11,242 nt of DNA, from the IMG/VR virus record IMGVR_UViG_2693429549_000013; one strand, 5' to 3'. Each line of letters starts with the position of its first letter. The first letter of the stretch is position 1. Below the pieces are notes generated by a model. The model was not told the DNA's origin, searched no databases, and was given only the letters and a program-made list of their open reading frames with translations. Shown here in pieces: positions 3,533-5,039 of this stretch. A program made the position numbers and the translations under genes. Source of the DNA: a virus (Duplodnaviria; Heunggongvirae; Uroviricota; Caudoviricetes).

Positions 3533-3642
3533 TATTCATTCTTCCAGATTCCTTCCGGCAGAGCCTTATACTGAAATATACCTGGCTCAGGATATTGTTG
3601 AAAATATTTTATGTTTGTCAAAAATAAAAGTTCTGTTAAGTA

Positions 3643-3996
3643 TTGATTGAGTGTTTGTTATACGGTCTAATGGTTTTTTCAGCATTAAATATTTATCATT
3701 CATATGGTGTGGGTAGAGTGAATATTGATGAGGCGTCGGGGTGTTTCATCCTTAGGCAGCGTATTGATATAGTCAATGCAGCACGAGCAAAGGCCTTCAG
3801 CCGTTTGACAGTTTTGTTCTGTACTCCTGATCGTCTTTCGGGAAGAGACGTTATTATTCTGAATAGTGATGCTATACAGAGGGTTTGCGATGAGTTCATG
3901 GTTGCTAATTCAGAATTATTTGCTCTTGTTCAGGAGTACAACAGAATAGCCAGGACCTGTGGTATGGATGAACTTCGGATTACTCATCTGGGGTAG
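3643..3996 (+). CDS. hypothetical ORF in AT-rich cargo (117 aa; start uncertain, possible GTG at 3718)
   Basis: Open frame only; no convincing ribosome-binding site and no recognisable motifs. Could be non-coding. Confidence 0.2.
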   Translation: MIECLLYGLMVFSALNIYHSYGVGRVNIDEASGCFILRQRIDIVNAARAKAFSRLTVLFCTPDRLSGRDVIILNSDAIQRVCDEFMVANSELFALVQEYNRIARTCGMDELRITHLG

Positions 3997-4200
3997 ATAC
4001 ATATCTGGATTATCACCTGTTACGGTAAAAAGTGATTGCTTACTGTTTTTGTGAATGGCATTGCAGCAGCCGGATAATGTCAGTGCTGGCTGACGGTGTG
4101 CTGGTGGCGGGTGTGGTGGTTGTTGCTTTCCCGTTGCTGAAAAAGAAAACGCCAGACTGTTAGCCGGGTATCAGTTAGCGGGAGAAATTTTTAAATACTT

Positions 4201-4410
4201 CACAATTCAGGCGGTTGACTGTTGTCTGGTTTGCGGGGAGTTTGTTAAAAGAAACTGGCATGGTGAATCCCCCTGTGCGGAGGGGCAATCAGCGAGTAGG
4301 TATATGGGATAATCGCGGATTCAGGTGCTGGTACTGAATTCACCGGGAGGCACCCGGCACCATGCAATGGCACATAGCGCCACTCTCCAGCCCCTCTCCG
4401 GAGGGGCTGT
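4201..4410 (+). ncRNA. structured module copy 1 (candidate small RNA): conserved hairpins plus intrinsic terminator
   Basis: CACAATTCAG..TTGACT.., hairpin CCCCT-gtgcgg-AGGGG, hairpin CCGGG-aggca-CCCGG, terminal hairpin AGCCCCTC-tccg-GAGGGGCT followed by a T-rich tail. About 97% identical to copy 2 by eye. Internal small ORFs are not conserved between copies. Confidence 0.4.
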
Positions 4411-4443
4411 TTATATTGATTTTGTCAGATGTGAGTAAACTCC

Positions 4444-4779
4444 TTATGGACTTTGTTGTTTTAGTCCATAAGGACATATTTGCAGAGTGCAACGGTTATT
4501 AAAGCATTCATTCAATACGTTATCTGTATTTGTAGGGCATTCCTGGCTATTTTTGATTGAATTCCAGAATGTTTTATTGAATGGTACTACGTTGTAAATG
4601 GTTACAGGTAGCACTTTGTTATTGAGCATGATGCCTGTGTGAGTCAGTGTAAATATACTTTCAGGAGGTAAGAAAGCATCCGATTGATACCAGATTATTA
4701 ATTTTATTTTACTCCATATGACTGAAAAAGATATTCCGCATGATGGCTGGATAACTGTATCAATCACAATCCACTTCAT
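4444..4779 (-). CDS. hypothetical protein (111 aa) in AT-rich cargo, opposite to late transcription
   Basis: Open frame with a GGAA ribosome-binding-like site 5-6 nt before the ATG at 4779. Its 3' end runs through a perfect 12-bp hairpin (4441-4474). No recognised homology. Confidence 0.3.
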
Positions 4780-5039
4780 TTAGTTTCCTTGTTTATGCCT
4801 TGCTGGTGATGTTCTGAAAAGTATAAATGATATTTTTGAATGTAAACCATAGAGCAGAATTATTTTTCTGATGTTGTTTATTGTTTATTTAAATGCAGGG
4901 TGGTTTATATCTCGTCTTGTAGTTTATCCATGCATATCTGCTTGATAATCAGGTTTTTATTTAAGGTATGGTTTTGTGTTTTTTCTGTATTACATGTCAG
5001 GTATTTTAAAGAATTATTTTTCAGATGGTGGAAAGAACC

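Follow-up and report, generated by a model that had tools for sequence, protein, structure and literature searches.

The anti-adaptor IraL has been reported to interact with RssB, and log-phase RpoS is lower in iraL deletions of both Escherichia coli CFT073 and Shigella sonnei (PMC4045071). The CFT073 gene, formerly ycgW, lies in the potB-island prophage (Hryckowian et al. 2014, PMC4045071); its published description is that of a sigma-70-dependent gene that is expressed in log phase and not regulated by PhoP, and Shigella is enriched for it (PMC4045071). The K-12 relative IraM, an anti-adaptor induced by Mg2+ starvation, differs from IraL both in its inducing conditions and in its mode of RssB interaction (PMC4045071). 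A further point of comparison is the Shiga toxin (Stx) phage 933W, whose late region runs in the order ileZ-argN-argO, stxA2B2, the SASA esterase gene (nanS-p) and S. The small RNA (sRNA) STnc100 lies 75 nucleotides (nt) downstream of stx2 (PMC12370729) and belongs to a prophage sRNA family related to PasD, described from the lambdoid late region beside an esterase gene (bioRxiv 10.64898/2026.05.13.724894). Here we compare these systems with positions 3533-5039 of a viral DNA stretch of 11,242 nt (IMG/VR record IMGVR_UViG_2693429549_000013; 'the window'), a segment between tRNA genes and nanS-p that an earlier note, made from the letters alone, had read as cargo of unknown function in the slot of the Shiga toxin genes. 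The segment is very probably the known iraL cargo cassette of an stx-negative lambdoid prophage, situated in the late region and most likely from S. sonnei. Its parts are, in order, a PHROG 2873 gene, a DUF3927 gene, STnc100 and iraL. Both the main gene, iraL, and the sRNA have been described before, and the finding is thus already known.

We assign the minus-strand open reading frame (ORF) at 4444-4779 to iraL. Its predicted product is identical to CFT073 IraL (WP_000871291.1) at 110 of 111 amino acids (aa), and the coding sequence has 2 mismatches in 336 nt, which places it at no less than 95% identity over the full length of the IraL of PMC4045071. The protein scores 162 bits against the NCBIfam model NF007393 (IraM; cut-off 121), with residues 1-110 covered, and matches the solved structure of IraM (PDB 8twd) with E = 6e-31. 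It shares this family, the N-terminal domain and the C-terminal cysteines with K-12 IraM (b1160). The two genes are nevertheless distinct: they are ~70% identical at the nucleotide level and their products 61% identical over 107 aa, which is the level published for IraL versus IraM (58.9%, PMC4045071). The K-12 iraM locus lies next to e14 and not in a late-region slot, and it has no match to the iraL promoter. K-12 iraM has been placed 'on the e14 prophage' (PMC4045071); in the RefSeq annotation of K-12 MG1655 the last base of the e14 feature is 1211412, which leaves iraM (1211680-1212003) a short way outside, past the icdC pseudogene. Both ORFs listed in the earlier note, this one and 3643-3996 on the plus strand, are present and intact. 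The statement that the segment holds only unrecognised ORFs fails, because one of them is iraL and a third small gene, DUF3927, had been missed.

The match to CFT073 extends through the promoter. The published 32-nt sequence from rapid amplification of the 5' ends of cDNA (5'RACE; PMC4045071) is matched in the window at 31 of 32 nt, with one substitution, and locates the transcription start site. The -35 and -10 hexamers are the same as in CFT073, and positions -100 to -1 carry a single mismatch, a promoter identity of at least 96% with the mapped start site present. Two further mismatches (4970 and 5027) lie in the interval 4847-5039. Upstream of iraL we spotted by eye TGTTTA repeats that are candidate PhoP-box-like elements.

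In a lysogen growing exponentially, iraL would be transcribed from its own sigma-70 promoter. IraL would then bind the adaptor RssB, so that RpoS is no longer handed to the ClpXP protease and would accumulate in log phase without a stress signal. We infer this mechanism from the CFT073 and S. sonnei literature, by the near-identity of gene and promoter. Regarding the host, database entries for the exact IraL sequence of the window are named by source as Shigella sonnei and "MULTISPECIES Shigella", and the exact nanS-p and methylase proteins likewise carry S. sonnei source names. Together with the insertion element IS600 described below, these S. sonnei-named proteins point to an S. sonnei chromosome as the most likely host.

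The cassette of CFT073 is the same (tRNAs, DUF3927, STnc100 and the start of DUF1737/nanS-p). Positions 3243-5169 of the window align to it gap-free at 98.3% identity, with 12 mismatches within 3533-5039. In the potB prophage of CFT073, the anti-adaptor gene is flanked by tRNA-Ile/Arg/Arg and DUF3927 on one side and by a DUF1737 fragment and holin on the other. The surroundings differ: a methylase gene precedes the tRNAs in the window and nanS-p' is cut by IS600, whereas CFT073 has IS200C upstream of the tRNAs. The earlier note had raised the question of a recurrent alternative cargo, and this is what we find. Of 5426 complete E. coli genomes, 863 carry at least 80% of the segment, and in the five sequences inspected (042, AF39, CFT073, the plasmid pNR3838_1 and the window) the cassette always lies between Q/methylase/tRNA genes and nanS-p/holin. 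The cassette is common among commensal-type and extraintestinal strains of E. coli. About 1400 records have iraL and its promoter at an identity of at least 95%, and ~3300 have the iraM class (~70% identity). The plasmid pNR3838_1 (NZ_AP040233.1, 94.5 kb) carries the full Q-methylase-tRNA-DUF3927-iraL-nanS-p-holin arrangement; 22 of 5853 iraL/iraM places are plasmid-borne.

To describe the slot itself, we compared the window with 933W and other prophages. The tRNA cluster, STnc100, nanS-p and holin follow in the same order in 933W, and the shared pieces are 86-93% identical; in contrast, the two differ in the type of Q, and in the window a methylase gene stands between Q and the tRNAs. The tRNA region, annotated as ileZ/argN/argO in 933W, is ~92% identical, and homology stops at 3547, just past the third tRNA; further along, the holin S region of 933W is 93% identical to 10499-10784. 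The stx slot is made up of two cargo positions that are divided by STnc100, within a framework of tRNAs, STnc100 and nanS-p that does not vary. Upstream of STnc100, 933W carries stxA2B2, the Stx2c prophage of O157 strain 9000 stx2cAB, and the window and CFT073 the PHROG 2873 gene with DUF3927; downstream, on the minus strand in each case, these prophages carry AsxR, an IraM/IraL-family paralogue and iraL, respectively. Phage mEp460 has the PHROG 2873 gene and DUF3927 upstream, and a TolA-annotated protein on the plus strand downstream, which makes it the exception among four arrangements inspected, the other three having opposite-strand cargo in the downstream position. [quoted passage not shown] A second slot in the window has nothing upstream and only further STnc100 copies downstream.

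The exact position of stxAB (3548-4187) is thus filled only by the PHROG 2873 gene and DUF3927. iraL is not the replacement of stx; it occupies the adjoining position, that of AsxR in 933W. The earlier assignment of the segment to the stx slot stands as far as the 933W order and the end of homology at the third tRNA go, but not for iraL, which lies beyond STnc100. On induction, the PHROG 2873 gene, DUF3927 and STnc100 would probably be read from pR' under Q control, like stx.

The paralogue of the O157 Stx2c prophage (WP_001303568.1, 107 aa) is 74% identical to the window IraL and ~65% identical to K-12 IraM, and so represents a third IraM/IraL lineage. It lies just 3' of stx2cAB and STnc100 (L010:4003-4326 of the retrieved pieces; E. 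coli strain 9000, NZ_CP018252.2), in the same sub-slot and minus orientation as iraL in the window, but, unlike in the window, with stx2cAB upstream. We found no functional study of it. The presence of stx2c and an IraM/IraL-like gene in one O157 prophage shows that anti-adaptor and stx are not alternatives.

Several points weigh against the assignment of the segment to the iraL cassette of an S. sonnei prophage. In RefSeq the protein is named IraM, not IraL, and its single difference from CFT073 IraL, S74 in place of L74, falls at a residue that is also leucine in K-12 IraM and the O157 paralogue. Promoter position -1 and one base of the 5' untranslated region (5'UTR) are changed relative to CFT073, the inferred spacer between -35 and -10 is just 15 nt, and a terminator scan revealed no intrinsic terminator 3' of iraL on its own strand. 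The attribution to S. sonnei comes entirely from the source names of exact protein matches, and an exact search with the nanS-p'/IS600 junction in species-representative genomes (one genome per species) gave no match. Finally, iraL expression and RssB binding in this prophage are predicted from sequence, and the dependence of the PHROG 2873 gene, DUF3927 and STnc100 on Q is argued from strand and position only. Because no intrinsic terminator of iraL was detected on its own strand, its transcript may reach STnc100 in antisense. It is a weaker and speculative possibility that this would couple the two, by analogy to AsxR, which holds the position of iraL in 933W.

Table 1. Features of the window in order of position; STnc100 scores refer to Rfam RF02076.
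Feature	Position	Strand	Details
Q-type antiterminator	790-1611		Pfam Antiterm
ORF of 65 aa	1836-2033
N6/N4 DNA methylase	2184-3242
tRNA trio, left anchor	3283-3532	plus	ileZ-like (CAT), argN-like (TCG), argO-like (TCT); ARAGORN and Rfam tRNA
Segment under study	3533-5039
Putative PHROG 2873 gene, longest ORF	3643-3996	plus	TTG start
Putative PHROG 2873 gene, alternative start	3670	plus	ATG start, 108 aa
Putative PHROG 2873 gene, conserved core	3718-3996	plus	GTG start at 3718, 92 aa
DUF3927 hydrophobic peptide gene	4032-4163	plus	43 aa
STnc100 sRNA gene	4229-4418	plus	Rfam RF02076
STnc100 terminator hairpin	4388-4409	plus	terminator scan
iraL	4444-4779	minus	opposite to late transcription; 111 aa, RssB anti-adaptor of the IraM/IraL family
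iraL 5'UTR and sigma-70-type promoter	4780-4846	minus
iraL Shine-Dalgarno	~4790	minus	AAGGA
iraL transcription start site	4812	minus	match to published 5'RACE sequence
iraL -10	4825-4820	minus	TATACT
iraL -35-like	4846-4841	minus	TTTACA
Intergenic	4847-5039		very AT-rich, between divergent iraL and nanS-p'
nanS-p' 5' end, right anchor	5040-5166	plus	DUF1737/SASA esterase, cut after 42 codons by IS600; Pfam DUF1737
IS600	5167-6430	minus	1264 bp, IS3-family transposase
Second methylase copy (3' part) and second tRNA trio	6435-7601		99.6% identical to 2378-3545
STnc100, second slot	7666-7855		124 bits
STnc100, second slot, degenerate third copy	7894-8067		30 bits, under gathering score
STnc100, second slot	8133-8342		161 bits
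nanS-p, intact	8565-10418
ORF at the position of holin in related prophages	10491-10784		positional assignment only
ORF at the position of the next lysis-region gene in related prophages	10789-11103		positional assignment only

The copy of a repeated module that had been noticed in the segment is indeed there, and corresponds to STnc100. Positions 4188-4412 are 96% identical to 7625-7847, and the sRNA gene matches Rfam RF02076 over its full length (model positions 1-206) at 132.4 bits (gathering score 47). There is no mismatch to STnc100 of CFT073. As described for the STnc100/PasD family, the gene lies in a lambdoid late region beside an esterase gene, and in both 933W and the O157 Stx2c prophage it sits between stxB and nanS-p. 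The 933W copy scores higher (208 bits), the window copy having an internal deletion relative to the model. No RNA family other than STnc100 (AsxR, AgvB or others) was found in 3500-5100, even at E <= 1. A partial pseudo 'hypothetical protein' placed on the minus strand by the annotation pipeline PGAP overlaps STnc100 (~4245-4373) and is probably spurious.

The ORF at 3643-3996 matches phrog_2873 with E = 3.8e-70, its residues 10-117 spanning profile positions 1-108 of 108. We think that it is a real gene. PGAP/RefSeq leaves it unannotated in 042, AF39, CFT073 and pNR3838_1, and likewise leaves the homologue in O178:H19 unannotated; scans of Pfam and NCBIfam gave no match; and a good Shine-Dalgarno sequence is lacking at all three candidate starts. 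These observations would fit a different reading, in which the ORF is not a gene and AT-rich 3548-4030 serves DUF3927 and STnc100 as a non-coding leader or regulatory stretch. We consider that reading unlikely. In addition to the PHROG match, there are 22 relatives among 1.84 billion representative proteins, several of which, at 91-95 aa, run colinear with the core; identity goes down to ~32%. These shorter relatives align from residue ~26, which suggests that the GTG at 3718 is the start. Compared with a 56%-identical homologue, the whole frame is kept at a synonymous divergence (dS) of ~1.1, with a nonsynonymous-to-synonymous ratio (dN/dS) of 0.34, and the differences by codon position (35/33/55) are biased towards the third. 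AlphaFold2, run on an alignment of 12 sequences, confidently predicts a two-helix hairpin (pLDDT 88.9; helices 3-34 and 50-81). Fold searches of this model in PDB and BFVD returned generic helical hairpins (best E 0.083, none <= 0.001). Finally, a 39%-identical homologue occupies the same relative place in an unrelated prophage, where it is followed by a faint TerB match, DUF3927, two holins and an endolysin. The profile match, the relatives, the codon-position bias, the predicted hairpin and this conserved placement argue for a gene.

The product of the neighbouring gene scores 95.6 bits against Pfam PF13064 (DUF3927; gathering threshold 25) and matches phrog_1470 with E = 7.8e-13, a family that PHROGs labels TciB-like. 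DUF3927 is annotated at matching positions in 042, AF39 and CFT073, the CFT073 protein being identical, and only 35 nt separate it from the PHROG 2873 gene. In enterobacterial temperate phages, TerB-like and DUF3927 (TciA/TciB-like) pairs lie upstream of holins; DUF3927 of the window is likewise on the late strand 5' of the lysis genes. A PHROG 2873 homologue can stand just before that system, as the gene does in the window, but the TerB-like gene is absent here. The Tci names presumably relate to phage P1; a literature search for TciA/TciB returned only papers on Trypanosoma cruzi genotypes. The homologue upstream of DUF3927, holins and endolysin ties the PHROG 2873/DUF3927 pair to the late and lysis region. 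One could go further and see in the pair an uncharacterised Q-dependent late module that could act at the membrane around lysis and moves as a unit between distant temperate phages. We regard this as quite improbable; candidate roles of such a module could be lysis timing, superinfection exclusion or tolerance of the colicin/tellurite type. What novelty is left in the segment lies with this unannotated PHROG 2873 gene together with DUF3927 in the toxin position.

A gene for an AraC-family (HTH_18) regulator occupies the slot in 89 complete E. coli genomes, with several STEC among those listed. The 56%-identical PHROG 2873 homologue begins 22 nt after it (retrieved pieces Logan contig L008:164-1261 and L011:4065-5400, the latter from O178:H19 strain 2012C-4431), which suggests a pair of a regulator and a small partner.

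As a whole, the window represents the part of a lambdoid prophage concerned with late regulation and lysis. That the segment is AT-rich and contrasts sharply with its flanks is borne out: its GC content is 39.4%, compared with 51.4% in the remainder of the window, 51.3% from Q to the tRNA genes and 53.5% in nanS-p. In 300-nt windows, mean GC is 0.514 (standard deviation 0.030) outside the segment and 0.414 inside, where the minimum of 0.307 lies ~7 standard deviations under the outside mean. The AT-richness is uneven. Two AT-rich blocks (3533-4030 and 4420-5024) are separated by an island of ~50% GC (4030-4420) that contains DUF3927 and STnc100. The low GC content is due mainly to iraL (34.5% in the coding sequence) and its promoter region (28.6% in 4780-5024), which fits a foreign origin. 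The earlier view of the segment as independently acquired cargo of unknown function is right in that the cargo is compositionally foreign and sits in a hot spot, and wrong about function for iraL and STnc100, which are known.

The absence of Shiga toxin genes is confirmed. Searching the whole window by tblastn with StxA2 and StxB2 from the annotated 933W record gave a best E of 0.6, and there is no stxA and stxB between tRNA cluster and nanS-p as in an Stx-converting prophage. The segment might instead encode an unrecognised toxin or virulence factor that stands in for Shiga toxin, given that the position is a known hot spot for virulence cargo and that no function is known for two of the four elements, but we find this hardly credible. 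The stxAB position holds a protein of 92 aa, predicted to be a helical hairpin, and a membrane peptide of 43 aa, neither of which resembles StxA or StxB; no signal peptide was seen in them, and no toxin-domain match was obtained for any ORF of either slot. In unrelated temperate phages the same pair is found 5' of the lysis genes, an indication of a late or lysis role, and the cassette is common in the commensal-type and extraintestinal strains mentioned above. That the segment is a decayed phage remnant with chance ORFs and no working gene has next to no probability: the prophage is rearranged nearby, nanS-p' being truncated by IS600 and the methylase-tRNA block duplicated, and PGAP passes over ORF 3643-3996, but the three protein genes are intact and near-identical across hundreds of genomes, the PHROG 2873 frame has the dN/dS and the distant relatives given above, and for iraL, the function of which is published, genetics has already refuted such a reading.

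The iraL cassette is bounded on the right by the truncated nanS-p', which shares 92% identity with the beginning of the intact nanS-p (8564-8694), and IS600 links it to a second methylase gene copy that lacks its 5' part. The element is 99.8% identical to annotated IS600 elements, has inverted repeats that begin with TGAGGT and scores 334 bits against the IS3 transposase profile, which identifies it as IS600. A simple insertion of an IS3-family element is expected to generate a 3-bp target duplication. The flanks here are CCC and AAA, with no target-site duplication, and the junction has the look not of a simple insertion but of IS600-mediated recombination between the late regions of two prophages, or of a join made in assembly.

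On the left, the pair of Arg tRNA genes with the spacer between them (3366-3532) has 13 mismatches to CFT073 in ~170 nt, compared with 12 in the 1507-nt cargo. Given this unequal divergence, the tRNA frame and the cargo have different histories, a sign of mosaic recombination. ARAGORN calls the tRNA with the CAT anticodon (3283-3358 and 7340-7415) 'Met', whereas RefSeq and the 933W homologue have tRNA-Ile (ileZ); if it is Ile, its anticodon would presumably have to be modified. The second tRNA-to-nanS-p slot (7590-8564) contains STnc100 copies and no protein cargo. A weak OmrA-B-like match, under threshold, lies beside them on the minus strand (8343-8431).

In its main part this analysis is a correction: the supposed unknown cargo is a published stress-regulation cassette that needs no discovery effort. 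Beyond that, three points concern the slot more widely. In the five records inspected, RefSeq annotation passes over a small, conserved phage gene that lies in the toxin position. The upstream position takes late-strand cargo: stxAB in some prophages, PHROG 2873 plus DUF3927 in others, an AraC-like regulator in yet others. And anti-adaptor genes and stx are able to sit side by side in one prophage.

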